Under the pieces are notes generated by a model that saw only the letters and a list, made by a program, of their open reading frames with translations, had not been told where the DNA came from and made no database searches. Shown in pieces: positions 8,662 to 63,008 of a stretch of 64,000 bases of DNA (its first letter is position 1; each line of letters starts with the position of its first letter). Source of the DNA: Nemertoderma westbladi (Eukaryota; Animalia; Xenacoelomorpha); the NCBI GenBank assembly GCA_032718475.1, contig JAUCBJ010004179.1:1-64000 (forward strand). The letters run 5' to 3'. The position numbers were made by a program, and so were the translations under genes.

Positions 8662-8818
8662 ATGCTATAATGGCGGTGTATGCAACCCATTTGATGGGAG
8701 TTGTAATTGCAAACCCGGTTTTATTGGACCCAAATGTGCAGATGAATGTCCACCAGGTACCTACGGAGACCGCTGTGCTTCTACCTGTAGATGTGTCCTC
8801 CACAGTGCGTGCAATAAG
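8662..8818 (+). CDS. Multiple-EGF-repeat gene (MEGF6/MEGF10/11/Draper-like), internal exon 1 of window
   Basis: tttag acceptor, CYNGGVCNPFDGSCNCKPGFIGPKCADEC...HSACNK, AAG|GTAAAT donor; phase 2 to 0. Confidence 0.9.
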
Positions 8819-9375
8819 GTAAATATGTCATTCACAGTGCGTGCAATAAGGTAAATATGCCATTCACAGTGCGTGCAATAAGGTAAATATGTCCTTCACA
8901 GTGCTTGCAATAAGGTAAATATGTCCTTCACAGTTCGTACAATAACGTAAATATGTCATTCACAGTGCGTGCAATAATGTAAATATGTCCTTCACAGTGC
9001 TTGCAATAAGGTAAATATGTCCTTCACAGTTCGTGCAATAACGTAAATATGTCATTCACAGTGCGTGCAATAACGTAATTATGTCCTTCACAGTGCGTGC
9101 AATAAGGTAAATATATTCTGCACGTGGTTGTGATAATGTAAATATGTCCTTCACAGTGCTTGCAACAAGGCAAATATGTATTCCACAGTGCGTGCAATAA
9201 GGTAAATATGTTCTTCGCAGTGCGTGCAATGAGGTAAATATTTATTTACAGTGGGTGCAATAAGGTAAATATATTCTCCAGTCTCCACGTTGGTTGTGAT
9301 AATGTAAATATGTCCTTCACAGTGCTTGCAATAAGGTAAATATGTCCTACACAGTGCGTGCAATAAAGTAAGTAT
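8793..9375 (+). repeat. 32-bp array made from the exon 3' end plus donor (ATGTCCTTCACAGTGCGTGCAATAAG|GTAAAT), about 18 diverged copies
   Basis: First unit is the coding exon end; later copies carry many substitutions. Confidence 0.9.
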
Positions 9376-9840
9376 ATCTATCCTACACGTTGTTTGCAAT
9401 ATATCCCGCGTATATCCTGCGAAATCCCCCACAAAATCATGATTGTCCCAATGTAATGGAATATAGTGCCTAAATTCGTGATTGGTGACGATGGAAAGGT
9501 GACAACGTGTCAAAGAAATACTCAGAATGCGTGGTGGGTGTGTTTGTGTGGGGTGGGGGGGGGGGGGGGGGGGGGGGGCTCTTTCCCTTAATTAATCATT
9601 TTTTAACTTTGGTAATTCGCTGAGACAAGAAGATATTAATTCGCCGAGATGGCAATGGTGATGGTGAATATTTATTTTATACCGTAGTCAGTTGAAATTA
9701 AAAGCAACACAGACATTCTAGAATTTCAATTCGCGTTGACTTTTATTTCACAATTCATATCAGAGAGCGCTGAGATGTATGCTAACGTTGTTATAACTAT
9801 TATGTACATGTACTATACTCTTTATTTTATTGTATCCTAG

Positions 9841-9968
9841 GTAACTGGGGAGTGCACCTGTGCATCTGGATGGAAGGGAAGCCAATGTGAGGAGCGATGC
9901 GATACTGGATTCTGGGGTGTTGGGTGTCGACAGATATGTCCCTGTTCTAATAACGCACCCTGCAATGT
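9841..9968 (+). CDS. Multiple-EGF-repeat gene, exon 2
   Basis: cctag acceptor, VTGECTCASGWKGSQCEERCDTGFWGVGCRQICPCSNNAPCN, GT|GTTAGT donor; phase 0 to 2 matches both neighbours. Confidence 0.9.
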
Positions 9969-12900
9969 GTTAGTACCATACATATATGCCCCTGTTCCAA
10001 CAACGCACCCTGCAATGTGTTAGTACCATACAGATATGCCCCTGTTCCAACAACGCACCCTGCAATGTGTTAGTACCATACAGATATGTCCCTGTTCCAA
10101 CAACGCACCCTGCAATGTGTTAGTACCATACAGATATGTCCCTGTTCCAATAATGCACCCTGCAATGTGTTAGTACCATACAGATATGCCCCTGTTCCAA
10201 TAACGCACCCTGCAATGTGTTAGTACCATACAGATATGTCCCTGTTCCAACAACGCACCCTGCAATGTGTTAGTACCATACAGATATGCCCCTGTTCCAA
10301 CAACGCACCCTGCAATGTGTTAGTACCATACAGATATGCCCCTGTTCCAACAACGCACCCTGCAATGTGTTAGTACCATACAGATATGTCCCTGTTCCAA
10401 CAACGCACCCTGCAATGTGTTAGTACCATACAGATATGCCCCTGTTCCAATAACGCACCCTGCAATGTGTTAGTAACATACAGATATGTCCCTGTCCCAA
10501 CAACGCACCCTGCAATGTGTTAGTACCATACAGATATGTCCCTGTTCCAATAACGCACCCTGCAATGTGTTAGTACCATACAGATATGCCCCTGTTCCAA
10601 CAACGCACCCTGCAATGTGTTAGTACCATACAGATATGTCCCTGTTCCAACAACGCACCCTGCAATGTGTTAGTACCATACAGATATGCCCCTGTTCCAA
10701 CAACGCACCCTGCAATGTGTTAGTACCATACAGATATGCCCCTGTTCCAACAACGCACCCTGCAATGTGTTAGTACCATACAGATATGTCCCTGTTCCAA
10801 CAACGCACCCTGCAATGTGTTAGTACCATACAGATATGTCCCTGTTCCAATAATGCACCCTGCAATGTGTTAGTACCATACAGATATGCCCCTGTTCCAA
10901 TAACGCACCCTGCAATGTGTTAGTACCATACAGATATGTCCCTGTTCCAACAACGCACCCTGCAATGTGTTAGTACCATACAGATATGTCCCTGTTCCAA
11001 TAACGCACCCTGCAATGTGTTAGTACCATACAGATATGTCCCTGTTCCAACAACGCACCCTGCAGAGTGTTAGTACCATACAGATATGTCTCTGTTCCAA
11101 CAACGCACCCTGCAGAGTGTTAGTACCATACAGATATGTCCCTGTTCCAACAACGCACCCTGCAATGTGTTAGTACCATACAGATATGTCCCTGTTCCAT
11201 ACAGATATGTCCCTGTTCCAATAACGAACCCTGCAATGTGTTAGTACCATACAGATATGTCCCTGTTCCATACAGATATGTCCCTGTTCCAACAACGCAC
11301 CCTGCAGAGTGTTAGTACCATACAGATATGTCCCTGTTCCAACAACGCACCCTGCAGAGTGTTAGTACCATACAGATATGTCCCTGTTCCAACAACGCAC
11401 CCTGCAATGTGTTAGTACCATACAGATATGTCCCTGTTCCATACAGATATGTCCCTGTTCCAATAACGAACCCTGCAATGTGTTAGTACCATACAGATAT
11501 GTCCCTGTTCCATACAGATATGTCCCTGTTCCAACAACGCACCCTGCAATGTGTTAGTACCATACAGATATGTCCCTGTTCCAATAACGAACCCTGCAAT
11601 GTGTTAGTACCATACAGATATGTCCCTGGTTAGTACCATACAGATATGTCCCTGTTCCATACAGATATGTCCCTGTTCCAATAACGCACCCTGCAATGTG
11701 TTAGTACCATACAGATATGTCCCTGTTCCAATAACGCACCCTGCAATGTGTTAGTTAGTACCATACATATATGTCCCTGTTCCAACAACGCACCCTGCAG
11801 AGTGTTAGTACCATACAGATATGTCCCTGTTCCAACAACGCACCCTGCAATGTGTTAGTACCATACAGATATGTCCCTGTTCCAATAACGCACCCTGCAG
11901 AGTGTTAGTACCATACAGATATGTCCCTGTTCCAACAACGCACCCTGCAGAGTGTTAGTACCATACAGATATGTCCCTGTTCCAATAACGCACCCTGCAA
12001 TGTGTTAGTACCATACAGATATGTCCCTGTTCCAACAACGCACCCTGCAATGTGTTAGTACCATACAGATATGTCCCTGTTCCAATAACGCACCCTGCAG
12101 AGTGTTAGTACCATACAGATATGTCCCTGTTCTAACAACGCACCCTGCAGAGTGTTAGTACCATACAGATATGTCCCTGTTCCAATAACGCACCCTGCAA
12201 TGTGTTAGTACCATACAGATATGTCCCTGTTCCAACAACGCACCCTGCAGAGTGTTAGTACCATACAGATATGTCCCTGTTCCAACAACGCACCCTGCAA
12301 TGTGTTAGTACCATACAGATATGTCCCTGTTCCAACAACGCACCCTGCTATGTGTTAGTACCATACAGATATGTCCCTGTTCCAACAACGCACCCTGCAG
12401 AGTGTTAGTACCATACATATATGTCCATGTTCCAATAACGCACCCTGCAGAGTGTTAGTACCATACAGATATGTCCCTGTTCCAACAACGCACCCTGCAG
12501 AGTGTTAGTACCATACAGATATGTCCCTGTTCCAATAACGCACCCTGCAATGTGTTAGTACCATACAGATATGTCCCTGTTCCAACAACGCACCCTGCAG
12601 AGTGTTAGTACCATACAGATATGTCCCTGTTCCAACAACGCACCCTGCAATGTGTTAGTACCATACAGATATGTCCCTGTTCCAATAACGCACCCTGCAG
12701 AGTGTTAGTACCATACAGATATGTCCCTGTTCCAACAACGCACCCTGCAGATGTGTTAGTACCATACAGATATGTCCCTGTTCCAATAACGCACCCTGCA
12801 ATGTGTTAGTACCATACAGATATGTCCCTGTTCCAACAACGCACCCTGCAGAGTGTTAGTACCATACAGATATGTCCCTGTTCCAACAACGCACCCTGCA

Positions 12901-15283
12901 ATGTGTTAGTACCATACAGATATGTCCCTGTTCCAACAACGCACCCTGCTATGTGTTAGTACCATACAGATATGTCCCTGTTCCAACAACGCACCCTGTT
13001 ATGTGTTAGTACCATACAGATATGTCCCTGTTCCATACAGATATGTCCCTGTTCCATACAGATATGTCCCTGTTCCAACAACGCACCCTGCAATGTGTTA
13101 GTACCATACAGATATGTCCCTGTTCCATACAGATATGTCCCTGTTCCAACAACGCACCCTGCAATGTGTTAGTACCATACAGATATGTCCCTGTTCCAAC
13201 AACGCACCCTGCAGAGTGTTAGTACCATACAGATATGTCCCTGTTCCAACAACGCACCCTGCAGAGTGTTAGTTAGTACCATACAGATATGTCCCTGTTC
13301 CAACAACGCACCCTGCTATGTGTTAGTACCATACAGATATGTCCCTGTTCCAACAACGCACCCTGCAGAGTGTTAGTTAGTACCATACAGATATGTCCCT
13401 GTTCCAACAACGCACCCTGCTATGTGTTAGTACCATACAGATATGTCCCTGTTCCAACAACGCACCCTGCAGAGTGTTAGTACCATACAGATATGTCCCT
13501 GTTCCAACAACGCACCCTGCAATGTGTTAGTACCATACAGATATGTCCCTGTTCCAACAACGCACCCTGCAGAGTGTTAGTTAGTACCATACAGATATGT
13601 CCCTGTTCCAATAACGCACCCTGCAGAGTGTTAGTTAGTACCATACAGATATGTCCCTGTTCCAATAACGCACCCTGCAATGTGTTAGTTAGTACCATAT
13701 AGATATGTCCCTGTTCCATACAGATATGTCCCTGTTCCAACAACGCACCCTGCAATGTGTTAGTACCATACAGATATGTCCCTGTTCCAACAACGCACCC
13801 TGCAGAGTGTTAGTTAGTACCATACAGATATGTCCCTGTTCCAATAACGCACCCTGCAATGTGTTAGTACCATACAGATATGTCCCTGTTCCAACAACGC
13901 ACCCTGCAGAGTGTTAGTTAGTACCATACAGCTATGTCCCTGTTCCAATAACGCACCCTGCAATGTGTTAGTTAGTACCATATAGATATGTCCCTGTTCC
14001 AACAACGCATCCTGCTATGTGTTAGTACCATACAGATATGTCCCTGTTCCAACAACGCACCCTGCAGAGTGTTAGTACCATACAGATATGTCCCTGTTCC
14101 AACAACGCACCCTGCAATGTGTTAGTACCATACAGATATGTCCCTGTTCCAACAACGCACCCTGCAATGTGTTAGTACCATACAGATATGTCCCTGTTCC
14201 AACAACGCACCCTGCAATGTGTTAGTACCATACAGATATGTCCCTGTTCCAACAACGCACCCTGCAGAGTGTTAGTACCATACAGATATGTCCCTGTTCC
14301 AACAACGCACCCTGCAATGTGTTAGTACCATACAGATATGTCCCTCTTCCAATAACGCACCCTGCAATGTGTTAGTACCATACAGATATGTCCCTGTTCC
14401 ATACAAATATGTCCCTGTTCCTACAACGCACCCTGCAATGTGTTAGTACCATACAGATATGTCCCTGTTCCAATAACGCACCCTGCAATGTGTTAGTACC
14501 ATACAGATATGTCCCTGTTCCATACAGATATGTCCCTGTTCCAACAACGCACCCTGCAATGTGTTAGTACCATACAGATATGTCCCTCTTCCAATAACGT
14601 ACCCTGCAATGTGTTAGTACCATACAGATATGTCCCTGTTCCATACAGATATGTCCCTGTTCCAATAACGCACCCTGCAATGTGTTAGTACCATACAGAT
14701 ATGTCCCTGTTCCAACAACGCACCCTGCAGAGTGTTAGTACCATACAGATATGTCCCTGTTCCAACAACGCACCCTGCAATGTGTTAGTACCATACAGAT
14801 ATGTCCCTGTTCCAACAACGCACCCTGCAGAGTGTTAGTACCATACAGATATGTCCCTGTTCCAACAACGCACCCTGCAATGTGTTAGTACCATACAGAT
14901 ATGTCCCTCTTCCAATAACGCACCCTGCAATGTGTTAGTACCATACAGATATGTCCCTGTTCCATGCAGATATGTCCCTGTTCCAACAACGCACCCTGAA
15001 ATGTGTTAGTACCATACAGATATGTCTCTGTTCCAACAACGCACCCTGCAATGTGTTAGTACCATACAGATATGTCCCTGTTCCAACAACGCACCCTGCA
15101 ATGTGTTAGTTAGTACCATACATATATGTCCCTGTTCCAACAACACACCCTGAAAAGTGTTAGTACCATACATATATGTCCCTGTTTCAACAACGCACCC
15201 TGCAATGTGTTAGTACCATATATATATGTCCCTGTTCCAATAACGCACCCTGCAATGTTTTAGTACCATACAGATATGTTCCT
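9930..15283 (+). repeat. 50-bp satellite made from the exon 3' end plus donor (ACAGATATGTCCCTGTTCCAACAACGCACCCTGCAATGT|GTTAGTACCAT), roughly 100 copies
   Basis: Tandem copies over about 5.35 kb; first unit lies inside exon 2. Confidence 0.95.
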
Positions 15284-15381
15284 CTTTCGGCGTGAGACTT
15301 ACGGAAAATTTATTGTTTATTTTTCATATTTCAAAAGATATCTTATCATTTTGGTAGATGAAAATGTTTGTCTTGTTTTAG

Positions 15382-15639
15382 AGAAACTGGTAAATGCCAT
15401 TGCCCACCTGGTTACCATGGAAACAGATGCCACCTGCAGTGCGTGGTTGGTACTTGGGGCCAGGGTTGTTTGCGCAGCTGTGATTGTCTTAACAACGGGA
15501 TATGCGACAGAGTGAGCGGCGAGTGCCAGTGTGTAGAAGGCTGGACTGGTCACTCATGTCAGACTCCGTGCCAATTGGGATGGTACGGAGTGAATTGCCA
15601 TCAACGTTGTAGTTGCCGAGGCAACACAGCTTGCGACAG
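15382..15639 (+). CDS. Multiple-EGF-repeat gene, exon 3
   Basis: ttttag acceptor, ETGKCHCPPGYHGNRC...GNTACDR, AG|GTAAAT donor; phase 2 to 2. Confidence 0.9.
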
Positions 15640-15817
15640 GTAAATGATAAATATTATTTTTATTATTTTAATGCCAGATATGCGTTGTAAGGAAAACTGT
15701 AAGATGTACTTTAGAACGCTTTAGTTGGTGAACATTTTTAATATGTTCACAATGACAAATGCCGGGTAGTTTCTTTTGTCCTAAAATGAAGCACGACAAA
15801 GGGAATTATATGTTTAG

Positions 15818-16011
15818 ATTTGATGGCAGTTGTGTTTGTCCTCCTGGTTTCGAAGGCGCCACCTGTGATCAGCAATGCAACCCGGGATTCTACGGAGAGA
15901 AATGTAGACGGCGTTGTCATTGCGACCACGGTACATGTAATCCCGAGGATGGTCACTGTGTCTGCAACCCCGGCTGGAAAGGAGTTTCCTGTCAAGAAGA
16001 ATGCGGATTCG
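15818..16011 (+). CDS. Multiple-EGF-repeat gene, exon 4
   Basis: tttag acceptor, FDGSCVCPPGFEGATC...CQEECGF, G|GTTAGT donor; phase 2 to 1. Confidence 0.9.
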
Positions 16012-18285: not shown

Positions 18286-18440
18286 GCTCCTGGGGTCCAG
18301 GATGTTTGAACCCCTGCCAATGTTCCAACTCGGGATTATGTAACCCGCTCGACGGCTCCTGCAGATGTACGAAAGGTTTTAAAGGCAGTCAGTGTAAATC
18401 TCCTTGTGAGAGCGGAACTTACGGTGAAAATTGTGTACAG
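18286..18440 (+). CDS. Multiple-EGF-repeat gene, exon 5
   Basis: gacag acceptor, SWGPGCLNPCQCSNSGLCNPLDGSC...GENCVQ, CAG|GTTGGT donor; phase 1 to 0. Confidence 0.9.
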
Positions 18441-18514: not shown

Positions 18515-18686
18515 ACACAACTTAGTATCGTGTGCCCACAACTTAGTATCTTGTGCGCACAACTTAGTATCTTGTGCGCACAACTTAGTATCTTGTGCGC
18601 ACAACTTAGTATCGGTGCGCACAACTTAGTATCTTGTGCGCACAACTTAGTATCTTGTGCGCACAACTTAGTATCTTGTGTGCACA
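18515..18686. repeat. 21-bp semi-palindromic minisatellite (CACAACTTAGTATCTTGTGCG), left part
   Basis: About 8 copies; array resumes at 22430 after a LINE insertion. Confidence 0.9.
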
Positions 18687-18687
18687 C

Positions 18688-21600
18688 CAAAGAAACCTAA
18701 GAAACTATTACTGCTCAGCTTCAGCTTTCTTGGCATCTAGAACACGGATATGTCAAGCATTCCCCTTAGAGAGAGGTGTAAGACAAGGCGGGATGTTATC
18801 CCCAATTCTTTTTAATTTCTATATGTCTAGTCTTTTTAAGGAGATTGATAACAGTGGTCTTGGTGTGCACATAAAGGCAGAATCTTTCGGTGGAGTGAGC
18901 TATGGTGATGATATCATTCTTGCAGCAAACATGAAGTCTGATGCAGAGAAACTTATGGCCCTATGCTGCAATTACTTTGAAAGACATAAGTTGCTTCTAA
19001 ACATAAAAAAGACTCATTTCGTATACCTGAATGGTGCTAGAACGAGCAATGGAGAGGAATCATTGGAATTCATAAATGGGACAGACAGCATTATTTTGGT
19101 TTCTGCGAAGGATTGCAACTATCTAGGGTTGCCCTTTCCCATGACGTCGCAATCTTTGACTCAGTTTGTAAAATGTAAAATTTGGACTTGTGTCAGCAGA
19201 ATGGAGGCACGTGGTCTTTGCATTAACAGTGTTCCACTGGCAGTTGTTGTTAAAATATGGAAGGTGATGTGCCTCCCGTCAATACTGTATGGATGCTCGG
19301 AACTTGATAAGCCTAATATTGCAGAGATATCGCTACAACTTCATAAAGCAATGAGAACTATATGTGCAATAGGAAACTATGTTTCTAATGGAATTCTATG
19401 TAAACTCTTTGGTATGATCAACCTGGAAGATTTCTTATACTTCAAAACTGCGTCATTTACCTACAGCATCTTAAATTGTCCTAATAGAAAGGTTCTTTTT
19501 TTCTTTCATCATTTAATCTGTCTGCACCTTGCAGGTCTGTCTAGTGCTCAGATTTTTTTCCGTTATGGTGTCTCCGCATGGCACCTCGGTTTACCAAGTT
19601 TGTCTTCTCTGAGTGTCTCTAGATACAGTTTCAAGGCCATACGGAATCGACATGGAAAATCTCAAGCCACCGAACTGAGTCCTGCTAGTCAGTATAAACT
19701 CTTTTTTATTGGTACCATACTGAGTTGCACCACTGGCTCACATGCAGCTCGCCATTTAGTGGTATTGGACTTTTATAATCTTTATCAATAATAATAATAC
19801 CTATAAAAGTATAAGTATAATAAATAATACTTAATCAATAATACTCCTAATGATACGTGTTATTTTTAACTGATATGATACTATTAGTTTTTCGGCCCTT
19901 ACATGCCAAAACCAGCCGTATTGTATTGTATTGTCATTGTATCTTGTTGCTCTTATTTTGTATGTTATTTTAATTACTTTGATGTTGTTAGACCATTTTA
20001 CCAATAATAGCCGCCGATAAATCAACATACTGTATCTTATGTATATAAATATCATAATCATTATTATAATATAGTTTTATAATTTCACCCTTCCTTTCTA
20101 TCATTTAAAATAATTGATTGTAAATACTGTCTCTTCAGCATATTATATATATTCATTAATGTCATTTCATCCAACATAATTTAAATCTGACATTATCAGT
20201 TATATATTTACGGTGTGTTTTTTAGACCTCACCATTTTACTGTAATTGTGTATTTTACTTAACCTATATACCGTGCGTTTTAAATTTTGTTTTAACAGTT
20301 ATCACCCTATAATTTTATCAATATAGCTGATATGTACTGATACGTACAATATACATGGCTCGCCCCTTATAGGACTATGTACCTAAGATACCGGTACCAC
20401 TAGATAGGTGGAGGGTTTTCCCTATTGCTATGCTGTACTGATATTACACTGTACTGCTGTACTACACTTTTATATTATACGTGTCTGCCTTATATACTAT
20501 TGATATTTATATTATTGGGGATATTCCGATAGTGCAGACATACCATGGCGCTGCGAGTAGTTAAACCCTCAACACGCATTTAGCATTTAAAGTGTAGCCA
20601 AAAGCAACCGCCTGAACGCCAACCCAAAAATGTCACTACCAACTGAGGATGACACCCTCAACCTCGATACTTCATCCGTTGACAAACTCGATAGGAATAC
20701 GCTAAAAGCTCATCTCACCAACGCTGAGATCACGTTTAGCGATAAAACTTCGACAGTTGCCCTGAAACAGAAACGTTTTAGGTTTCGCGCAGTGCTATTA
20801 TAGTGGTCTATCGCCTTCTTACGAATAATGCTGTGTTTGTTGTCTGCTTCTTCAGCAGCATCGCGCCATTTAGGATCGTAAGTAGTATGGTGAGCTGGCA
20901 CTCGTGACCGTAGATTGTGACCGAACACAATCTCGTTGGGAGAACGGCCGTCGAAACGCGGGGTATTGCGTAATTCTAGAATAGCTTCCTGGAAGTTCTC
21001 AGAAGTAATATCCTGTGTGGGCAACTTCGCTAGCATAGATTTTATTATGTTAACATTACATTCCGCGTGGCCATTACTGGAAGGAAAATGGGGACTACTT
21101 GGTGCCCATTTTACTCCCCAGTGTTCTAGAAAATTTTTAAAATGTTTTGCGGCGAATTGTGGTCCGTTGTCTGTCCGCATGTGAGTTGGAACTCCGAAGT
21201 CGGCAAAGAAATGACGGACAACAGCGGCGACCTGCCGTGATGAGGGGTCGTTTCGCCATTGGGCTACTACAGGGTAGCCTGACAACATATCTGTATAAAC
21301 TAAGTATTTGCGTCCAGCAGTAGTGAATAAATCCGCAGATACCCACTGAAATGGTCTGTCTGGGGGAAGGTCCGTTATTAGTTTCTCCTTAGGTAGGCTG
21401 CGTTGGCGCTGTTGGCATTGCTCGCAGCCCCCAACGAGTTTGGCAATGTCCTTATTTATCCCGGGCCAAAAAACGACTTCGCGAGCTCGTTGTTTGGTAC
21501 GTACTATACCCTGATGTGGGGCGTGTAAACGTTTTAGAACGAGGTTTCGTTTTGATTTCGGGATGACTAATTGTACACCAAATAAAACCAGTCCATTTTC

Positions 21601-23311: not shown

Positions 23312-23607
23312 TGCAGACTCAGATCCAGGTCTGCGGACTCCGTCCCAGGTCTGCAGACTCCGTCCCAGGTCTGCGGACTCCGTCCCAGGTCTGCAGACTC
23401 CGTCCCAGGTCTGCGGACTCCGTCCCAGGTCTGCGGACTCCGTCCCAGGTCTGCGGACTTAGACCCAGGTCTGCGGACTCCGTCCCAGGTCTGCGAGCTC
23501 CGTCCCAGGTCTGCGGACTTAGACTCAGGTTTGCGGACTCCGTCCCAGGTGTGCGGACTCCGTCCCAGGTCTGCGGACTCCGTCCCAGGTCTGCGGACTT
23601 AGACCCA
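23312..23607. repeat. 20-bp satellite (CCGTCCCAGGTCTGCGGACT), left part
   Basis: About 14 copies; interrupted by a solo LTR. Confidence 0.9.
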
Positions 23608-30972: not shown

Positions 30973-31283
30973 ATTTGTCAATGTCAAAATCAGGCAACTT
31001 GCAATCCGATTGATGGTTATTGCGACTGTAGGGCTGGCTGGCGGGGGACTCAATGCGAGGAAACGTGTCCCGCTGGTAGATATGGACCTTATTGTAACGG
31101 AATCTGTAGTTGTCCTGACAACCTCACATGCAACAGGTTCGACGGATCTTGTCTCTGTCCGCCCGGAAAACAAGGACTCCAATGCGCGGATGAATGCGAC
31201 CCTGGGAGATACGGGAGGATGTGTGCATCCGTGTGCCAATGCAGCAGCACTGCTGACTGCGACACAGTTAACGGGCAATGTAG
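30973..31283 (+). CDS. Multiple-EGF-repeat gene, exon 6
   Basis: tatag acceptor, ICQCQNQATCNPIDGYCDC...CDTVNGQC, AG|GTAAGT donor; phase 0 to 2. Confidence 0.9.
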
Positions 31284-31579: not shown

Positions 31580-31911
31580 GTGTAAACCTGGATGGACAGG
31601 TGAAAATTGCCAAGAGAAATGTGAACCCGGTTACTATGGAAACAACTGTGAGAAGCAATGCCGCTGCGCTAACGGAGTTTGTAATAGACTTAATGGGGAG
31701 TGCCGTTGCAACGTGGGCTACAGGGGGGTTCACTGCGATCAGAGATGTCCTACGGGACAGTTTGGGGCGGGCTGCGCCGGGGTGTGTACCTGCAGCGATC
31801 GGGGTGAATGCGATCCGGTTACGGGGTTCTGTGAATGCGAGGCTGGCTGGACTGGTGGGAAATGCGACGAGAGATGTCCCGAGGGAACCTTCGGAAAGAA
31901 TTGCGAAGGAG
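31580..31911 (+). CDS. Multiple-EGF-repeat gene, exon 7
   Basis: gttag acceptor, CKPGWTGENCQEKC...GKNCEG, G|GTGGGT donor; phase 2 to 1. Confidence 0.88.
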
Positions 31912-32159: not shown

Positions 32160-32330
32160 GTTGTGAATGCAAGAATGGGGGAAGGTGTACAGGAAGTAGT
32201 GGAGAATGTATGTGCCGAGCAGGTTACCAAGGCAATATGTGTCAGCTCGAGTGCGACCCTGGTATCTACGGCATTGGTTGCTCACTTCAGTGCAACTGTC
32301 AGAATGGTGGCTACTGCCACCACGAAACGG
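32160..32330 (+). CDS. Multiple-EGF-repeat gene, exon 8
   Basis: tttag acceptor, CECKNGGRCTGSSGEC...GGYCHHET, G|GTAAGT donor; phase 1 to 1. Confidence 0.9.
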
Positions 32331-32682
32331 GTAAGTTAAATTGTCAGAATGGTGGCTACTGCCATCACGAAACGGGTAAGTTAAATTGTCAGATTGGTGG
32401 CTACTGCCACCACGAAACGGGTAAGTTAAATTGTCAGATTGGTGGCTACTGCCACCACGAAACGGGTAAGTTAAATTGTCAGAATGGTGGCTACTGCCAC
32501 CACGAAACGGGTAAGTTAAATTGTCAGAATGGTGGCTACTGCCACCACGAAACGGGTAAGTTAAATTGTCAGATTGGTGGCTACTGCCACCACGAAACGG
32601 GTAAGATAAATTGTCAGAATGGTGGCTACTGCCACCACGAAACGGGTAAGTTATATTGTCAGAGTGGTGGCTACTGCCACCA
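32294..32682 (+). repeat. 45-bp array made from the exon 3' end plus donor (AATTGTCAGAATGGTGGCTACTGCCACCACGAAACGG|GTAAGTTA), 8 full copies plus a partial
   Basis: GTAAG donors at 32331 + 45n up to 32646. Confidence 0.95.
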
Positions 32683-32988
32683 CTCTCACCACTCTGCCAC
32701 CACATTCAGTTAGTGTAACAAGCAGTACATCATTTATATATCGTATGTATCTATAGGGCCTAATTGCCATCGTTATAATACTGTCATCAACTCAGGCTAA
32801 GCTCAATTATATTGTAAAGTCTTAGTAGGTTTTGTATATCTGGGACGTGCGATTAAACTAACAAAACCAGAAAACTGAACCAAGGTCCCAGCCGGGTACC
32901 AACGGCTGTTGGGTAGACTTAATGGAAGATTTAACAAACTTTCATAGGAGGCTTGTACATGTACATTATATTGGTTGCTCCGATGTTT

Positions 32989-34857: not shown

Positions 34858-34986
34858 GTGATTGTGATTGCGCACCTGGTAAAACTGGTCCAACTTGCAA
34901 TGAAAATTGTCCGCCCGGCAAATTTGGGAAATTCTGTGCGATGGTTTGCCGATGTGGGGACCACGGTGTCTGTTCTCCTATTACAG
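34858..34986 (+). CDS. Multiple-EGF-repeat gene, exon 9
   Basis: tcaag acceptor, DCDCAPGKTGPTCNENC...VCSPIT, G|GTGAGA donor; phase 1 to 1. Confidence 0.9.
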
Positions 34987-51207: not shown

Positions 51208-51382
51208 GTGATTGTATTTGCCAGCCGGGGTATGAAGGTTCGCAATGCTCCGAAGAATGTGCGGATGGGACTTTCGGCGTCAATTGTGAGGGACTATGTG
51301 ACTGCGGAGGGAACTCCTGTTACCATGTGGACGGGATTTGTAGATGTGGTTCCGGAGTGACTGGGACAAGTTGCCAAGATAG
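51208..51382 (+). CDS. Multiple-EGF-repeat gene, exon 10
   Basis: ctcag acceptor, DCICQPGYEGSQCSEECADGTFGVNC...TSCQD, AG|GTAAAC donor; phase 1 to 2. Confidence 0.9.
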
Positions 51383-52250: not shown

Positions 52251-52442
52251 ATGTCTGCCCGGTTGGTATGGGGCTGACTGTGCGTTGGCCTGTCTCTGTC
52301 GCAACGGCGCCACTTGCAATCGGTTTAATGGGGAATGTCTCTGCGCTCCCGGCTATGTGGGCCAATATTGTGAGGATGAATGTCCAAAGAACCGGTACGG
52401 ACCGATGTGTTCCATCGCATGTAAATGTTCCCGAAGGAGCGG
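52251..52442 (+). CDS. Multiple-EGF-repeat gene, exon 11
   Basis: cgtag acceptor, CLPGWYGADCALAC...CSIACKCSRRS, GG|GTAAGT donor; phase 2 to 2 matches exon 12. Confidence 0.9.
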
Positions 52443-55400
52443 GTAAGTGGGTCAATATTGTGAGGATGAATGTCCAAAGAACCGGTACGTACGTACCTAT
52501 GTGTTCCATCGCATGTGCGTGTTCCCAAGGGAGCGGGTAAGTGGGCCAATATTGTGGACCGATATGTTCCATCGCATGTAAATGTTCCCGAAGGAGCGGG
52601 TAAGTGGGCCAATATTGTGAGGATGAATGTCCAAAGAACCGGTACGTACGGACCGATGTGTTCCATCGCATGTACGTGTTCCCAAGGGAGCGGGTAAGTG
52701 GGCCAATATTGTGAGGATGAATGTCCAAAGAACCGGTACGGACCGATGTGTTCCATCGCATGTAAATGTTCCCGAAGGAGCGGGTAAGAGGGCCAATATT
52801 TTGAGGATGAATGTCCAAAGAACCGGTACGGACCGATGTGTTCCATCGCATGTAAATGTTCCCGAAGGAGCGGGTAAGTGGGCCAATATTGTGAGGATGA
52901 ATGTCCAAAGAACCGGTACGTACGGACCGATGTGTTCCATCGCATGTACGTGTTCCCAAGGGAGCGGGTAAGTGGGCCAATATTGTGAGGATGAATGTCC
53001 AAAGAACCGGTACGGACCGATGTGTTCCATCGCATGTACGTGTTCCCAAGGGAGCGGGTAAGTGGGCCAATATTGTGAGGATGAATGTCCAAAGAACCGG
53101 TACGGACCGATGTGTTCCATCGCATGTACGTGTTCCCAAGGGAGCGGGTAAGTGGGCCAATATTGTGAGGATGAATGTCCAAAGAACCGGTACGGACCGA
53201 TGTGTTCCATCGCATGTACGTGTTCCCAAGGGAGCGGGTAAGTGGGCCAATATTGTGAGGATGAATGTCCAAAGAACCGGTACTGACCGATGTGTTCCAT
53301 CGCATGTACGTGTTCCCAAGGGAGCGGGTAAGTGGGCCAATATTGTGAGGATGAATGTCCAAAGAACCGGTACGTACGTACCGATGTGTTCCATCGCATG
53401 TACGTGTTCCCAAGGGAGCGGGTAAGTGGGCCAATATTGTGAGGATGAATGTCCAAAGAACCGGTACGGACCGATGTGTTCCATCGCATGTACGTGTTCC
53501 CAAGGGAGCGGGTAAGAGGGCCAATATTGTGAGGATGAATGTCCAAAGAACCGGTACGTACGTACCGATGTGTTCCATCGCATGTACGTGTTCCCAAGGG
53601 AGCGGGTAAGTGGGCCAATATTGTGAGGATGAATGTCCAAAGAACTGGTACGGACCGATGTGTTCCATCGCATGTAAATGTTCCCGAAGGAGCGGGTAAG
53701 TGGGCCAATATTGTGAGGATGAATGTCCAAAGAACCGGTACGTACGGACCGATGTGTTCCATCGCATGTACGTGTTCCCAAGGGAGCGGGTAAGTGGGCC
53801 AATATTGTGAGGATGAATGTCCAAAGAACCGGTACGGACCGATGTGTTCCATCGCATGTACGTGTTCCCAAGGGAGCGGGTAAGTGGGCCAATATTGTGA
53901 GGATGAATGTCCAAAGAACTGGTACAGACCGATGTGTTCCATCGCATGTAAATGTTCCCAAAGGAGCGGGTAAGAGGGCCAATATTGTGAGGATGAATGT
54001 CCAAAGAATCGGTACGGACCGATGTGTTCCATCGCATGTAAATGTTCCCGAAGGAGCGGGTAAGTGGGCCAATATTGTGAGGATGAATGTCCAAAGAACC
54101 GGTACGTACGGACCGATGTGTTCCATCGCATGTACGTGTTCCCAAGGGAGCGGGTAAGTGGGCCAATATTGTGAGGATGAATGTCCAAAGAACCGGTACG
54201 GACCGATGTGTTCCATCGCATGTACGTGTTCCCAAGGGAGCGGGTAAGTGGGCCAATATTGTGAGGATGAATGTCCAAAGAACCTGTACGGACCGATGTG
54301 TTCCATCGCATGTAAATGTTCCCGAAGGAGCGGGTAAGTGGGCCAATATTGTGAGGATGAATGTCCAAAGAACCGGTACGTACGGACCGATGTGTTCCAT
54401 CGCATGTACGTGTTCCCAAGGGAGCGGGTAAGAGGGCCAATATTGTGAGGATGAATGTCCAAAGAACCGGTACGTACGTACCGATGTGTTCCATCGCATG
54501 TACGTGTTCCCAAGGGAGCGGGTAAGTGGGCCAATATTGTGAGGATGAATGTCCAAAGAACCGGTACGTACGGACCGATGTGTTCCATCGCATGTACGTG
54601 TTCCCAAGGGAGCGGGTAAGTGGGCCAATATTGTGAGGATGAATGTCCAAAGAACTGGTACGGACCGATGTGTTCCATCGCATGTAAATGTTCCCGAAGG
54701 AGCGGGTAAGAGGGCCAATATTGTGAGGATGAATGTCCAAAGAACCGGTACGTACGGACCGATGTGTTCCATCGCATGTACGTGTTCCCAAGGGAGCGGG
54801 TAAGTGGGCCAATATTGTGAGGATGAATGTCCAAAGAACTGGTACGGACCGATGTGTTCCATCGCATGTAAATGTTCCCGAAGGAGCGGGTAAGAGGGCC
54901 AATATTGTGAGGATGAATGTCCAAAGAACCTGTACGGACCGATGTGTTCCATCGCATGTACGTGTTCCCAAGGGAGCGGGTAAGTGGGCCAATATTGTGA
55001 GGATGAATGTCCAAAGAACCGGTACGGACCGATGTGTTCCATCGCATGTACGTGTTCCCGAAGGAGCGGGTAAGAGGGCCAATATTGTGAGGATGAATGT
55101 CCAAAGAACCGGTACGTACGTACCTATGTGTTCCATCGCATGTACGTGTTCCCAAGGGAGCGGGTAAGTGGGCCAATATTGTGAGGATGAATGTCCAAAG
55201 AACCGGTACGTACGGACCGATGTGTTCCATCGCATGTACGTGTTCCCAAGGGAGCGGGTAAGTGGGCCAATATTGTGAGGATGAATGTCCAAAGAACCGG
55301 TACGTACGGACCGATGTGTTCCATCGCATGTAAATGTTCCCGAAGGAGCGGGTAAGTGGGCCAATATTGTGAGGATGAATGTCCAAAGAACCGGTACGTA

Positions 55401-58400
55401 CGGACCGATGTGTTCCATCGCATGTACGTGTTCCCAAGGGAGCGGGTAAGTGGGCCAATATTGTGAGGATGAATGTCCAAAGAACCGGTACGTACGGACC
55501 GATGTGTTCCATCGCATGTACGTGTTCCCAAGGGAGCGGGTAAGTGGGCCAATATTGTGAGGATGAATGTCCAAAGAACCGGTACGTACGGACCGATGTG
55601 TTCCATCGCATGTACGTGTTCCCAAGGGAGCGGGTAAGTGGGCCAATATTGTGAGGATGAATGTCCAAAGAACCGGTACGTACGGACCGATGTGTTCCAT
55701 CGCATGTACGTGTTCCCAAGGGAGCGGGTAAGAGGGCCAATATTGTGAGGATGAATGTCCAAAGAACCGGTACGTACGTACCGATGTGTTCCATCGCATG
55801 TACGTGTTCCCAAGGGAGCGGGTAAGTGGGCCAATATTGTGAGGATGAATGTCCAAAGAACCGGTACGTACGGACCGATGTGTTCCATCGCATGTACGTG
55901 TTCCCAAGGGAGCGGGTAAGTGGGCCAATATTGTGAGGATGAATGTCCAAAGAACCGGTACGTACGGACCGATGTGTTCCATCGCATGTAAATGTTCCCG
56001 AAGGAGCGGGTAAGTGGGCCAATATTGTGAGGATGAATGTCCAAAGAACCGGTACGTACGGACCGATGTGTTCCATCGCATGTACGTGTTCCCAAGGGAG
56101 CGGGTAAGTGGGCCAATATTGTGAGGATGAATGTCCAAAGAACCGGTACGTACGGACCGATGTGTTCCATCGCATGTACGTGTTCCCAAGGGAGCAGGTA
56201 AGAGGGCCAATATTGTGAGGATGAATGTCCAAAGAACCGGTACGTACGTACCGATGTGTTCCATCGCATGTACGTGTTCCCAAGGGAGCGGGTAAGTGGG
56301 CCAATATTGTGAGGATGAATGTCCAAAGAACCGGTACGGACCGATGTGTTCCATCGCATGTAAATGTTCCCGAAGGAGCGGGTAAGTGGGCCAATATTGT
56401 GAGGATGAATGTCCAAAGAACCGGTACGTACGGACCGATGTGTTCCATCGCATGTACGTGTTCCCAAGGGAGCGGGTAAGTGGGCCAATATTGTGAGGAT
56501 GAATGTCCAAAGAACCGGTACGGACCGATGTGTTCCATCGCATGTAAATGTTCCCAAGGGAGCGGGTAAGTGGGCCAATATTGTGAGGATGAATGTCCAA
56601 AGAACCGGTACGGACCGATGTGTTCCATCGCATGTAAATGTTCCCGAAGGAGCGGGTAAGTGGGCCAATATTGTGAGGATGAATGTCCAAAGAACCGGTA
56701 CGTACGGACCGATGTGTTCCATCGCATGTACGTGTTCCCAAGGGAGCGGGTAAGTGGGCCAATATTGTGAGGATGAATGTCCAAAGAACCGGTACGGACC
56801 GATGTGTTCCATCGCATGTAAATGTTCCCAAGGGAGCGGGTAAGTGGGCCAATATTGTGAGGATGAATGTCCAAAGAACCGGTACGGACCGATGTGTTCC
56901 ATCGCATGTAAATGTTCCCGAAGGAGCGGGTAAGTGGGCCAATATTGTGAGGATGAATGTCCAAAGAACCGGTACGTACGGACCGATGTGTTCCATCGCA
57001 TGTACGTGTTCCCAAGGGAGCGGGTAAGTGGGCCAATATTGTGAGGATGAATGTCCAAAGAACTGGTACGGACCGATGTGTTCCATCGCATGTAAATGTT
57101 CCCGAAGGAGCGGGTAAGAGGGCCAATATTGTGAGGATGAATGTCCAAAGAACCGGTACGGACCGATGTGTTCCATCGCATGTAAATGTTCCCAAGGGAG
57201 CGGGTAAGTGGGCCAATATTGTGAGGATGAATGTCCAAAGAACCGGTACGGACCGATGTGTTCCATCGCATGTAAATGTTCCCGAAGGAGCGGGTAAGAG
57301 GGCCAATATTGTGAGGATGAATGTCCAAAGAACCGGTACGTACGGACCGATGTGTTCCATCGCATGTACGTGTTCCCAAGGGAGCGGGTAAGTGGGCCAA
57401 TATTGTGAGGATGAATGTCCAAAGAACTGGTACGGACCGATGTGTTCCATCGCATGTAAATGTTCCCGAAGGAGCGGGTAAGAGGGCCAATATTGTGAGG
57501 ATGAATGTCCAAAGAACCTGTACGGACCGATGTGTTCCATCGCATGTACGTGTTCCCAAGGGAGCGGGTAAGTGGGCCAATATTGTGAGGATGAATGTCC
57601 AAAGAACCGGTACGGACCGATGTGTTCCATCGCATGTACGTGTTCCCGAAGGAGCGGGTAAGAGGGCCAATATTGTGAGGATGAATGTCCAAAGAACCGG
57701 TACGTACGTACCTATGTGTTCCATCGCATGTACGTGTTCCCAAGGGAGCGGGTAAGTGGGCCAATATTGTGAGGATGAATGTCCAAAGAACCGGTACGTA
57801 CGGACCAATGTGTTCCATCGCATGTACGTGTTCCCAAGGGAGCGGGTAAGTGGGCCAATATTGTGAGGATGAATGTCCAAAGAACCGGTACGTACGGACC
57901 GATGTGTTCCATCGCATGTACGTGTTCCCAAGGGAGCGGGTAAGTGGGCCAATATTGTGAGGATGAATGTCCAAAGAACCGGTACGTACGGACCGATGTG
58001 TTCCATCGCATGTAAATGTTCCCGAAGGAGCGGGTAAGAGGGCCAATATTGTGAGGATGAATGTCCAAAGAACCTGTACGGACCGATGTGTTCCATCGCA
58101 TGTACGTGTTCCCAAGGGAGCGGGTAAGTGGGCCAATATTGTGAGGATGAATGTCCAAAGAACCGGTACGGACCGATGTGTTCCATCGCATGTACGTGTT
58201 CCCGAAGGAGCGGGTAAGAGGGCCAATATTGTGAGGATGAATGTCCAAAGAACCGGTACGTACGTACCTATGTGTTCCATCGCATGTACGTGTTCCCAAG
58301 GGAGCGGGTAAGTGGGCCAATATTGTGAGGATGAATGTCCAAAGAACCGGTACGTACGGACCGATGTGTTCCATCGCATGTAAATGTTCCCGAAGGAGCG

Positions 58401-61400
58401 GGTAAGTGGGCCAATATTGTGAGGATGAATGTCCAAAGAACCGGTACGTACGGATCGATGTGTTCCATCGCATGTACGTGTTCCCAAGGGAGCGGGTAAG
58501 TGGGCCAATATTGTGAGGATGAATGTCCAAAGAACCGGTACGTACGGACCGATGTGTTCCATCGCATGTACGTGTTCCCAAGGGAGCGGGTAAGAGGGCC
58601 AATATTGTGAGGATGAATGTCCAAAGAACCGGTACGTACGTACCGATGTGTTCCATCGCATGTACGTGTTCCCAAGGGAGCGGGTAAGGTGGCCAATATT
58701 GTGAGGATGAATGTCCAAAGAACCGGTACGTACGGACCGATGTGTTCCATCGCATGTACGTGTTCCCAAGGGAGCGGGTAAGAGGGCCAATATTGTGAGG
58801 ATGAATGTCCAAAGAACCGGTACGTACGTACCGATGTGTTCCATCGCATGTACGTGTTCCCAAGGGAGCGGGTAAGAGGGCCAATATTGTGAGGATGAAT
58901 GTCCAAAGAACCGGTACGTACGGACCGATGTGTTCCATCGCATGTACGTGTTCCCAAGGGAGCGGGTAAGTGGGCCAATATTGTGAGGATGAATGTCCAA
59001 AGAACTGGTACGGACCGATGTGTTCCATCGCATGTAAATGTTCCCGAAGGAGCGGGTAAGTGGGCCAATATTGTGAGGATGAATGTCCAAAGAACCGGTA
59101 CGTACGGACCGATGTGTTCCATCGCATGTACGTGTTCCCAAGGGAGCGGGTAAGAGGGCCAATATTGTGAGGATGAATGTCCAAAGAACCGGTACGTACG
59201 GACCGATGTGTTCCATCGCATGTACGTGTTCCCAAGGGAGCGGGTAAGTGGGCCAATATTGTGAGGATGAATGTCCAAAGAACTGGTACGGACCGATGTG
59301 TTCCATCGCATGTAAATGTTCCCGAAGGAGCGGGTAAGTGGGCCAATATTGTGAGGATGAATGTCCAAAGAACCGGTACGTACGGACCGATGTGTTCCAT
59401 CGCATGTACGTGTTCCCAAGGGAGCGGGTAAGTGGGCCAATATTGTGAGGATGAATGTCCAAAGAACTGGTACGGACCGATGTGTTCCATCGCATGTAAA
59501 TGTTCCCGAAGGAGCGGGTAAGAGGGCCAATATTGTGAGGATGAATGTCCAAAGAACCTGTACGGACCGATGTGTTCCATCGCATGTACGTGTTCCCAAG
59601 GGAGCGGGTAAGTGGGCCAATATTGTGAGGATGAATGTCCAAAGAACCTGTACGGACCGATGTGTTCCATCGCATGTAAATGTTCCCGAAGGAGCGGGTA
59701 AGTGGGCCAATATTGTGAGGATGAATGTCCAAAGAACCGGTACGTACGGACCGATGTGTTCCATCGCATGTACGTGTTCCCAAGGGAGCGGGTAAGTGGG
59801 CCAATATTGTGAGGATGAATGTCCAAAGAACTGGTACGGACCGATGTGTTCCATCGCATGTAAATGTTCCCGAAGGAGCGGGTAAGAGGGCCAATATTGT
59901 GAGGATGAATGTCCAAAGAACCGGTACGGACCGATGTGTTCCATCGCATGTACGTGTTCCCAAGGGAGCGGGTAAGTGGGCCAATATTGTGAGGATGAAT
60001 GTCCAAAGAACCTGTACGGACCGATGTGTTCCATCGCATGTAAATGTTCCCGAAGGAGCGGGTAAGTGGGCCAATATTGTGAGGATGAATGTCCAAAGAA
60101 CCGGTACGTACGGACCGATGTGTTCCATCGCATGTACGTGTTCCCAAGGGAGCGGGTAAGTGGGCCAATATTGTGAGGATGAATGTCCAAAGAACCGGTA
60201 CGTACGGACCGATGTGTTCCATCGCATGTACGTGTTCCCAAGGGAGCGGGTAAGTGGGCCAATATTGTGAGGATGAATGTCCAAAGAACCGGTACGGACC
60301 GATGTGTTCCATCGCATGTACGTGTTCCCAAGGGAGCGGGTAAGTGGGCCAATATTGTGAGGATGAATGTCCAAAGAACCGGTACGTACGACCGATGTGT
60401 TCCATCGCATGTACGTGTTCCCAAGGGAGCGGGTAAGGGGCCAATATTGTGAGGATGAATGTCCAAAGAACCGGTACGTACGGACCGATGTGTTCCATCG
60501 CATGTACGTGTTCCCGAAGGGAGCGGGTAAGAGGGCCAATATTGTGAGGATGAATGTCCAAAGAACCGGTACGTACGGACCGATGTGTTCCATCGCATGT
60601 ACGTGTTCCCAAGGGAGCGGGTAAGTGGGCCAATATTGTGAGGATGAATGTCCAAAGAACCGGTACGTACGGACCGATGTGTTCCATCGCATGTACGTGT
60701 TCCCAAGGGAGCGGGTAAGTGGGCCAATATTGTGAGGATGAATGTCCAAAGAACCTGGTACGGACCGATGTGTTCCATCGCATGTAAATGTTCCCGAAGG
60801 AGCGGGTAAGTGGGCCAATATTGTGAGGATGAATGTCCAAAGAACCGGTACGTACGGACCGATGTGTTCCATCGCATGTACGTGTTCCCAAGGGAGCGGG
60901 TAAGTGGGCCAATATTGTGAGGATGAATGTCCAAAGAACCGGTACGTACGGACCGATGTGTTCCATCGCATGTACGTGTTCCCAAGGGAGCGGGTAAGTG
61001 GGCCAATATTGTGAGGATGAATGTCCAAAGAACTGGTACGGACCGATGTGTTCCATCGCATGTAAATGTTCCCGAAGGAGCGGGTAAGTGGGCCAATATT
61101 GTGAGGATGAATGTCCAAAGAACCGGTACGTACGGACCGATGTGTTCCATCGCATGTACGTGTTCCCAAGGGAGCGGGTAAGTGGGCCAATATTGTGAGG
61201 ATGAATGTCCAAAGAACCGGTACGGACCGATGTGTTCCATCGCATGTAAATGTTCCCAAGGGAGCGGGTAAGAGGGCCAATATTGTGAGGATGAATGTCC
61301 AAAGAACCTGTACGGACCGATGTGTTCCATCGCATGTACGTGTTCCCAAGGGAGCGGGTAAGTGGGCCAATATTGTGAGGATGAATGTCCAAAGAACCTG

Positions 61401-63008
61401 TACGGACCGATGTGTTCCATCGCATGTAAATGTTCCCGAAGGAGCGGGTAAGTGGGCCAATATTGTGAGGATGAATGTCCAAAGAACCGGTACGTACGGA
61501 CCGATGTGTTCCATCGCATGTACGTGTTCCCAAGGGAGCGGGTAAGTGGGCCAATATTGTGAGGATGAATGTCCAAAGAACTGGTACGGACCGATGTGTT
61601 CCATCGCATGTAAATGTTCCCGAAGGAGCGGGTAAGAGGGCCAATATTGTGAGGATGAATGTCCAAAGAACCGGTACGGACCGATGTGTTCCATCGCATG
61701 TACGTGTTCCCAAGGGAGCGGGTAAGTGGGCCAATATTGTGAGGATGAATGTCCAAAGAACCTGTACGGACCGATGTGTTCCATCGCATGTAAATGTTCC
61801 CGAAGGAGCGGGTAAGTGGGCCAATATTGTGAGGATGAATGTCCAAAGAACCGGTACGTACGGACCGATGTGTTCCATCGCATGTACGTGTTCCCAAGGG
61901 AGCGGGTAAGTGGGCCAATATTGTGAGGATGAATGTCCAAAGAACCGGTACGTACGGACCGATGTGTTCCATCGCATGTACGTGTTCCCAAGGGAGCGGG
62001 TAAGTGGGCCAATATTGTGAGGATGAATGTCCAAAGAACCGGTACGGACCGATGTGTTCCATCGCATGTACGTGTTCCCAAGGGAGCGGGTAAGTGGGCC
62101 AATATTGTGAGGATGAATGTCCAAAGAACTGGTACAGACCGATGTGTTCCATCGCATGTAAATGTTCCCGAAGGAGCGGGTAAGAGGGCCAATATTGTGA
62201 GGATGAATGTCCAAAGAATCGGTACGGACCGATGTGTTCCATCGCATGTAAATGTTCCCGAAGGAGCGGGTAAGTGGGCCAATATTGTGAGGATGAATGT
62301 CCAAAGAACCGGTACGTACGGACCGATGTGTTCCATCGCATGTACGTGTTCCCAAGGGAGCGGGTAAGTGGGCCAATATTGTGAGGATGAATGTCCAAAG
62401 AACCGGTACGGACCGATGTGTTCCATCGCATGTACGTGTTCCCAAGGGAGCGGGTAAGTGGGCCAATATTGTGAGGATGAATGTCCAAAGAACCTGTACG
62501 GACCGATGTGTTCCATCGCATGTAAATGTTCCCGAAGGAGCGGGTAAGTGGGCCAATATTGTGAGGATGAATGTCCAAAGAACCGGTACGTACGGACCGA
62601 TGTGTTCCATCGCATGTACGTGTTCCCAAGGGAGCGGGTAAGTGGGCCAATATTGTGAGGATGAATGTCCAAAGAACCGGTACGTACGGACCGATGTGTT
62701 CCATCGCATGTACGTGTTCCCAAGGGAGCGGGTAAGTGGGCCAATATTGTGAGGATGAATGTCCAAAGAACTGGTACAGACCGATGTGTTCCATCGCATG
62801 TAAATGTTCCCGAAGGAGCGGGTAAGTGGGCCAATATTGTGAGGATGAATGTCCAAAGAACCGGTACGGACCGATGTGTTCCATCGCATGTACGTGTTCC
62901 CAAGGGAGCGGGTAAGTGGGCCAATATTGTGAGGATGAATGTCCAAAGAACCGGTACGGACCGATGTGTTCCATCGCATGTACGTGTTCCCAAGGGAGCG
63001 GGTAAGTG
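52357..63008 (+). repeat. 90/94-bp satellite made from the exon 3' end plus donor, roughly 115 copies over 10.65 kb
   Basis: Unit GTGGGCCAATATTGTGAGG...CCCGAAGGAGCGG|GTAA; first unit is the last 86 nt of exon 11. Confidence 0.97.

Follow-up and report, generated by a model that had tools for sequence, protein, structure and literature searches.

Tandem arrays beginning at four 5' splice sites of one Nemertoderma westbladi gene, with a donor look-alike one period upstream in each exon

A stretch of 64,000 nucleotides of the Nemertoderma westbladi genome (assembly GCA_032718475.1, contig JAUCBJ010004179.1, positions 1 to 64,000 of the forward strand; hereafter the window) contains a gene in which donors 1, 2, 8, and 11, belonging to the exons ending at 8818, 9968, 32330, and 52442, each begin a tandem array detected by TRF. 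The units of these arrays, the intact first copy, and a look-alike of the donor situated in the exon at exactly one period upstream are all directly visible (Table 1). We consider it rather probable that the arrays are four independent minisatellites of the mirage kind, born by slippage, enlarged by slippage and unequal exchange, and tolerated through use of the first donor.

Table 1. Exons, donor-side arrays, and exonic donor look-alikes in the window
Feature	Position	Strand	Description
Exon 1	8662..8818	+	EGF-like repeats; donor phase 0; first exon in window
Exon 2	9841..9968	+	Donor phase 2
Exon 3	15382..15639	+	Array-free
Exon 4	15818..16011	+	Array-free
Exon 5	18286..18440	+	Array-free
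Exon 6	30973..31283	+	Array-free
Exon 7	31580..31911	+	Array-free; laminin-type EGF (PF00053)
Exon 8	32160..32330	+	Donor phase 1
Exon 9	34858..34986	+	Array-free
Exon 10	51208..51382	+	Array-free
Exon 11	52251..52442	+	Donor phase 2; in-frame stop just past donor, in intron
Exon 12	63200..63337	+	Array-free
Array 1	8787..9375	+	32-nt unit, about 25 exon + 7-8 intron nt; 18 donor-like sites
Array 2	9930..15286	+	50-nt unit, 39 exon + 11 intron nt (11-21 with blurred boundary); 101 donor-like sites
Array 3	32297..32683	+	45-nt unit, 34-37 exon + 8-11 intron nt; 8 donors
Array 4	52350..63008	+	90/94-nt unit, 83-86 exon + 4-7 intron nt; 116 donors
Donor 1 look-alike	8784..8792	+	In exon, 32 nt upstream; 4-5/9 bases match
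Donor 2 look-alike	9916..9924	+	In exon, 50 nt upstream; 6/9, joint best among periods 25-100
Donor 8 look-alike	32283..32291	+	In exon, 45 nt upstream; 5/9
Donor 11 look-alike	52350..52358	+	In exon, 90 nt upstream; 7/9, sole best among periods 25-100

The 12 exons join into a single open frame of 779 codons without a stop that encodes EGF repeats, and from its sequence the host is taken to be an invertebrate-type EGF-repeat gene, likely continuing past the window end after exon 12. It resembles the multi-EGF proteins MEGF10/11, PEAR1, and Draper/CED-1 in its tandem laminin-type EGF-like repeats, whereas identity to them does not exceed 48%, a likeness by sequence for a gene whose ends lie outside the window. 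The closest proteins to exon 7 are PEAR1, MEGF, and Draper-like (12 matches among 34 candidates), and the best identity of a kinase ORF in the window is about 40%; neither protein search returned close relatives or anything above 48% identity. A metagenome scan gave 57 pattern matches that reduce to only 2 loci, at 34% and 49% identity, and no useful relatives. RT fragments are also present in the window.

The first-pass annotation had placed arrays directly at 4 of 12 exon ends, and TRF and the 12-exon model agree with it. Its estimate of about 17 kb and 200 donor copies is borne out by 16,794 nt of array and 243 donor-like sites including the authentic ones (18 + 101 + 8 + 116), with GT kept in 241 of them, and the four independent births and the large intron expansion that it described hold as well. 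Indeed, the arrays occupy 98% of introns 2 and 11, which measure 5.4 and 10.8 kb and would be reduced to about 0.1 and 0.2 kb without them. Every unit carries a short intron tail as had been described, with boundaries that are blurred by microhomology and need correction (about 7-8, 11-21, 8-11, and 4-7 nt). That the first copy is the true exon end could be upheld by reading frame only.

Array 1 is the oldest, with copies 86% identical to the exon end and a degenerate tail, and its read-through meets a stop after 11 codons. Array 2 includes internal secondary duplications of 4 nt (10 times) and 21 nt (12 times), is followed by 95 nt of plain intron, and reaches a stop after 18 codons. Array 3 stays in frame over 127 open codons, and array 4 consists of two interleaved unit classes. 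The last unit is partial in arrays 2 and 3; array 4 alone closes with a clean full unit, after which come 191 nt of old intron. Use of downstream donors would bring in a stop in arrays 1, 2, and 4. There are 86 distinct unit sequences among 239, the longest run of identical units is four, and short blocks of different variants alternate along the arrays. In this one sequence of a single allele, arrays 2 and 4 carry recurring variants that are common to several of their units and unlike the exon copy. Where most copies of arrays 1 and 2 differ from the exon, the change is always synonymous (3/3), which is consistent with a constrained first copy. Of 70 variant types in the array copies, 23 are synonymous; with 17-26% expected, this gives no clear sign of coding constraint.

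Repeats of this geometry have been described before, contrary to the initial statement that no named system was known. In PMC3087553 and PMC3902484, amphioxus 'mirage' minisatellites are reported for Adh3 (Canestro 2002, as cited in both), the globins BflGb6 and BflGb9, troponin C, and PGBD5. Lancelet PGBD5 is described as carrying two donor-side mirages in two exons, the first copy adjoining the 5' splice site (PMC3902484), and the globin paper gives a unit range of 10-160 nt and calls the origin unclear (PMC3087553). The four arrays are an unusually dense case of this already named repeat kind. As in mirages, the first unit crosses the exon-intron boundary (4/4 arrays), the units of 32, 50, 45, and 90/94 nt fall inside the lancelet range, the splice signal is kept in the copies, and one gene can hold more than one array. 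Unlike in lancelets, all the arrays here are donor-side, and they concern 4/12 donors, the largest array reaching 116 copies and 10.6 kb; the globins and PGBD5 have 2-7 copies.

Human genes offer a second parallel, which likewise counts against the supposed lack of precedent. Donor-spanning minisatellites are listed for F7 intron 7 (37 nt), CBS intron 13, 6-16, LMNB2, and PDGF in PMC1557585, according to which only the first donor is used in F7, LMNB2, and PDGF, the choice in F7 being shown by mutagenesis, while CBS and 6-16 use mainly the first donor plus two downstream copies. There, too, the first monomer covers the exon end and donor and is followed by identical pseudo-donors. However, the F7 unit of 4 exon and 33 intron nt has the reverse proportion of the arrays described here, and the human repeats comprise 5-26 copies with one array per gene, against four arrays in this gene.

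The key to the birth of the arrays may lie in the exonic look-alikes. When donor positions -3 to +6 are compared with the exon one period upstream, 23/36 bases match over the four pooled arrays, where 9.7/36 are expected over all periods 20-150 (P 7e-6); a variant of the test using the last array copy gives 22/36 (P 3e-5). The likeness is limited to the donor patch, positions -12 to -4 matching at 5/36. In the 10 nt ahead of the junction, 6, 6, and 8 match in arrays 1, 3, and 4, whereas in array 2 only 3/10 match and none of these lies in the 6 nt that adjoin the apparent junction; array 2 fits slippage only if its last partial unit is old intron. This likeness at one period is a new observation and would be the mark of microhomology-guided slippage rather than of RNA copying.

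Minisatellite birth between short direct repeats was proposed by Haber and Louis 1998, as summarised in PMC6947457, and yeast rad27 mutants show ABA-to-ABABA insertions (PMC5677150). The arrays resemble these cases in having units of tens of bases and a short repeat at the junction; they differ in that the two copies of this repeat are not identical and that, in 4/4, it is the splice-donor motif. A short repeat was found at both breakpoints one period apart, abutting the junction in 3/4 arrays and not in array 2, and the 4-nt and 21-nt secondary duplications inside arrays 2 and 4 likewise have the ABA-to-ABABA form. Following these established models, the strand with the donor motif would likely have slipped and re-paired with the exonic look-alike 32-90 nt upstream, such duplication between short imperfect repeats then being followed by stepwise expansion through more slippage and, likely, unequal exchange.

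Survival of the arrays would depend on splicing. By analogy with human F7, the first donor would be used, so that donor-side copies would be neutral and the arrays are likely tolerated or harmless, whereas copies lying entirely within the exon, or on the acceptor side with little intron sequence, would disrupt the mRNA and be removed by selection. However, first-donor use is taken from mammals, and human 6-16 and CBS also use two downstream copies. Moreover, purifying selection alone cannot raise arrays over neutral density, and in 4/15 arrays the first unit contains a donor, where 0.19 are expected under neutral placement (P 2e-5, in a window preselected for the pattern from a very large scan). 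The slippage reading could accommodate this excess over the intronic background if arrays arose more readily in GC-richer exon-type DNA (GC 0.52 in exon versus 0.18-0.48 in the first 60 intron nt), in which hypothetical case the surviving arrays would be those that extend barely past the donor at their far end.

Which donors gain arrays cannot be predicted from look-alikes since every donor (12/12) has at least one upstream match of 5/9 or better. When the 12 acceptor and 12 donor regions were compared with the window by blastn, the 8 remaining donors gave no further match, and acceptors gave scattered chance matches of 13-18 nt in 7/12 and zero tandem copies, in line with the reported absence of arrays at all 12 acceptors. 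The suggested enrichment of donors over acceptors, 4/12 versus 0/12 within the window, is borderline (p 0.047 one-sided, 0.093 two-sided).

An alternative places the cause in splicing itself: a hotspot just 3' of the U1-bound donor, such as a nick, R-loop edge, polymerase stall, or nucleosome edge, would hold one breakpoint at +4 to +11, after which repair guided by microhomology would choose the exonic partner. We regard this as unlikely, though it accounts for several features. Each of the four junctions allows a placement no more than 11 nt from the donor, at +4 to +11 (array 2 up to +21), with a Fisher-combined p of 0.003-0.14 depending on assumptions and n=4, and the donor excess over neutral placement would follow from it. 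Among the 8 donors that lack arrays, pairs of high homeology show no clear enrichment at +4 to +11 (shares of 0.137 and 0.158 versus 0.144 at thresholds 6 and 7; 3/10 at threshold 8); the supply of microhomology thus does not explain the short tails, and a splicing-linked mutational bias may contribute. Further, a fifth array lies in an RT-like fragment that runs antisense and so codes for nothing on this strand. Its 50-nt unit stops 7-8 nt past GTAAGT, and its 37-nt unit stops 13-15 nt past GTAAGC; the chance is about 0.005 per array and about 0.06 over 12 non-exon rows, for a match found post hoc. Against such a hotspot, the remaining non-exon arrays in the window show no convincing donor at their unit ends, the sample is of four in a preselected window, and U1 pairing scores 7-9 in array donors and likewise in the other eight. 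In addition, the F7 unit is mostly intronic (PMC1557585) and acceptor-side mirages occur in lancelet BflGb6 (PMC3087553). The four array donors are not set apart from the other eight by donor score either, nor by GC, skew, hairpin energy, and CpG over the last 50 exon nt. Of the donor-coupled process first proposed, the surplus of arrays over a neutral-then-filtered null holds, while a U1-coupled break is no more than possible, with array donors pairing no better with U1 than the others and the F7 geometry opposite. No genome-wide count of donor- versus acceptor-side arrays and no U1 or R-loop link was found in a literature search of main texts, including few subscription papers. A broader claim, which we hold to be doubtful, is that in this lineage the 5' splice site is a mutational hotspot. 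A splicing-linked lesion located 4-11 nt inside the intron would start microhomology-guided duplication toward the exon, including at cryptic donors without coding constraint, and would be a main route of fifty-fold short-intron growth.

RNA- or circle-templated iterative copying, whether by RT of nascent or cleaved pre-mRNA or by rolling circle, would add many units at once. The partial last unit of arrays 2 and 3 and the RT fragments would suit such a process, which the first-pass annotation had also suggested. Nevertheless, the intron bases within units mean that spliced mRNA was not the template, each period equals the offset of a DNA look-alike in the exon, as DNA slippage predicts, and variants lie in interleaved short blocks as stepwise growth would leave; templated copying is therefore disfavoured and appears improbable.

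Still less probable is the Rogers model, in which the introns themselves would have arisen when an exonic AG|GT proto-splice site was duplicated in tandem. Where exon 2 begins, 5/6 bases agree with the first 6 intron nt of array 1, and for exon 9 and array 3 the agreement is 4/6, whereas arrays 2 and 4 have no such match. Rogers-type gain, with the last repeat copy as acceptor matching the next exon start, was rejected: each intron ends in 95-2174 nt of non-repetitive sequence with its own ordinary pyrimidine-rich acceptor. Assembly artefacts are the least credible source since, while the array lengths are those of the assembly, the 86 distinct units with recurring shared variants, the longest identical run of four, and the decay of array 1 to 86% identity speak against them, and like arrays in lancelet PGBD5 were confirmed by resequencing (PMC3902484).

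With about 240 decoy donors in one gene, the locus is an extreme example of a known repeat kind. It offers a sequence clue to how such repeats start, the point called unclear in the lancelet globin paper (PMC3087553). Since downstream use leads to a stop in array 4 and stays in frame in array 3, the two arrays together allow the choice of the first donor to be tested naturally in a non-mammal. If junctions proved to be fixed just 3' of donors genome-wide regardless of coding constraint, spliceosome binding would be tied to mutation in the germline and to the growth of introns, an important result.

Twelve cysteine-rich, AG/GT-bounded exons were identified by six-frame scans of the window, with a spliced length of 2,340 nt and 779 stop-free codons. 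The predicted protein is a series of laminin-type EGF-like repeats, and the best protein matches of exon 7 are PEAR1, MEGF and Draper-like proteins, with identities of at most 48%. On the same strand, 0.9 kb upstream of exon 1, stands an intact, intronless ORF of 714 codons resembling protein kinase C delta, with two C1 domains and a kinase domain (about 40% identity to its best matches). It is likely a diverged retrogene, possibly sitting within an intron.

The tandem arrays described in the first-pass annotation at four exon ends of this gene are real and match that description, as established with TRF and by cutting the units at donors (5' splice sites). The GT is kept at 241 of the 243 donor-like sites. 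Together, the arrays span 16,794 nt, with 95 nt of non-array sequence remaining in intron 2 and 191 nt in intron 11. No tandem copies were found at the remaining 8 donors or, as previously claimed, at any of the 12 acceptors of the gene. The arrays are not equally old: identity with the exon end averages 0.86, 0.93, 0.98 and 0.96 in arrays 1 to 4, respectively.

Positions and properties of the donor arrays and other features
Feature	Position (strand)	Period (nt)	Donor-like sites, authentic included	Method
EGF-like gene, twelve exons	8662-63337 (+)			Six-frame scans
Array 1, exon 1 donor		32	18	TRF; units cut at donors
Array 2, exon 2 donor		50	101	TRF; units cut at donors
Array 3, exon 8 donor	32331-32683	45	8	TRF; units cut at donors
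Array 4, exon 11 donor	52443-63008	90/94	116	TRF; units cut at donors
Compound array, intron 5	29151-29589	37, then 50
Paired array	18516-18686
Paired array	22474-23033
Paired array	23325-23599
Paired array	26365-28162
LINE-type RT fragment (Pfam RVT_1)	18610-19788 (+)
Open frame, 666 codons	1072-3069 (-)
Kinase-like ORF	5616-7757 (+)

Positions -3 to +6 of the four donors, counted from the exon end into the intron, match the exon one period upstream at 23 of 36 bases, compared with 9.7 expected over periods 20-150 (P = 7e-6). The match is 22 of 36 (P = 3e-5) when the last array copy is taken as the old intron, and 16 of 28 for -3 to +4 by itself (P = 6e-4). Upstream of the donor motif it drops to 5/36; the one-period likeness is restricted to the donor motif. 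Among offsets of 25-100, the period is the sole best for the exon 11 donor and a joint best for the exon 2 donor. The likeness patch reaches the junction (the intronic end of the unit) in arrays 1, 3 and 4, with 6, 6 and 8 of 10 bases matching, and ends 6 nt before it in array 2, unless the last partial unit is the old intron. Arrays 2 and 4 also contain internal small duplications, likewise of the ABA-to-ABABA form, which is the form given for minisatellite birth (Haber and Louis, via PMC6947457) and found in yeast rad27 insertions (PMC5677150). From the likeness at the donor motif and this form, the units likely arose by DNA slippage guided by microhomology.

Microhomology accounts for which exonic partner was used, not for where the intronic junction lies. 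At the 8 donors lacking an array, closely matching pairs occur about equally often with long as with short tails (the intron part of the unit). Donors with and without an array are also alike in U1 pairing, GC, skew and hairpin energy. Exon GC is 0.52, and our best guess is that array births would be easier in GC-richer, exon-type DNA. Wholly exonic arrays and short acceptor-side arrays would be eliminated by selection, and the remaining arrays would be those barely clearing the donor. Microhomology slippage with selection is put forward as the rather probable mechanism, more likely than the U1-coupled process proposed in the first-pass annotation. That a splicing-linked lesion at the donor sets array births appears unlikely. 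A post hoc hint in its favour comes from the intron 5 array, nested within an antisense RT-like fragment, whose 50-nt unit ends 7-8 nt past a sense-strand GTAAGT (chance about 0.06 over non-exon arrays).

On the gene's sense strand, GTAAG is close to the end of both units of this compound array, and an acceptor-like site lies nearby at about 29112; the array may be a fifth donor-anchored one, at a cryptic exon. In the 40,446 nt outside arrays and exons, the sense strand carries 14 GTAAGT motifs and the opposite strand 5.

All array statistics were computed within the 64-kb window alone. Among 15 merged TRF arrays listed by hand (period at least 15; short two-copy and simple-sequence rows excluded), 4 include a donor in their first unit, compared with 0.19 expected, and the P of 2e-5 is not proof because the window was picked for the pattern among about 250,000. 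Random duplication with selection, the null model proposed earlier, does not yield this excess alone because selection only removes arrays. The significance of the suggested donor-side bias over acceptors is borderline (p = 0.047, one-sided). For the short intron tail of the four arrays, the combined p varies from 0.003 to 0.14 with the placement of blurred junctions and the minimum tail allowed. An assembly artefact is improbable because the 239 units comprise 86 distinct sequences and identical runs never exceed four; lengths are as assembled.

Elsewhere, four arrays form two pairs having a 21-nt or a 20-nt unit in common and, since these units recur in separate arrays, they represent dispersed repeat families, not local births. 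The 666-codon frame has no Pfam match, and its motifs are presumably Penelope-like.

In arrays 1, 2 and 4, the use of any downstream donor would lead to a frameshift or a stop (after 11, 18 and 1 codons). Array 3 keeps the reading frame of exon 8 and is stop-free for 127 codons, and every extra donor, if used, would add 15 residues including two cysteines. Arrays 1 and 2 together show three majority differences from the exon; all three are synonymous, in keeping with a first copy under constraint. Two classes of unit alternate irregularly along array 4. The commoner class, with 77-78 of 115 units, carries four linked changes relative to exon 11, of which three are non-synonymous and would alter three residues, as if it had been founded from a different exon 11 allele. 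In human F7, mutagenesis showed that the most upstream functional donor prevails, and in CBS and 6-16 two further donor copies are used besides (PMC1557585).

The suggestion of an unnamed system is contradicted by repeats already in print. In lancelet, exon-intron boundaries are tandemly duplicated as 'mirage' minisatellites in Adh3, globins, troponin C and PGBD5, the last with two donor-side sets in one gene. Their units of 10-160 nt lie on either exon side and leave splicing undisturbed, and their origin is termed 'unclear' (PMC3087553, PMC3902484). Donor-spanning minisatellites are listed for five human genes (PMC1557585), and repeats at exon-intron boundaries in human segmental duplications are the subject of PMC2812944. 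In the literature searched, of limited coverage, neither a genome-wide count of donor and acceptor arrays nor a link of donor arrays to U1 or R-loops was found. The four arrays of N. westbladi are an unusually dense case of a known kind of repeat.
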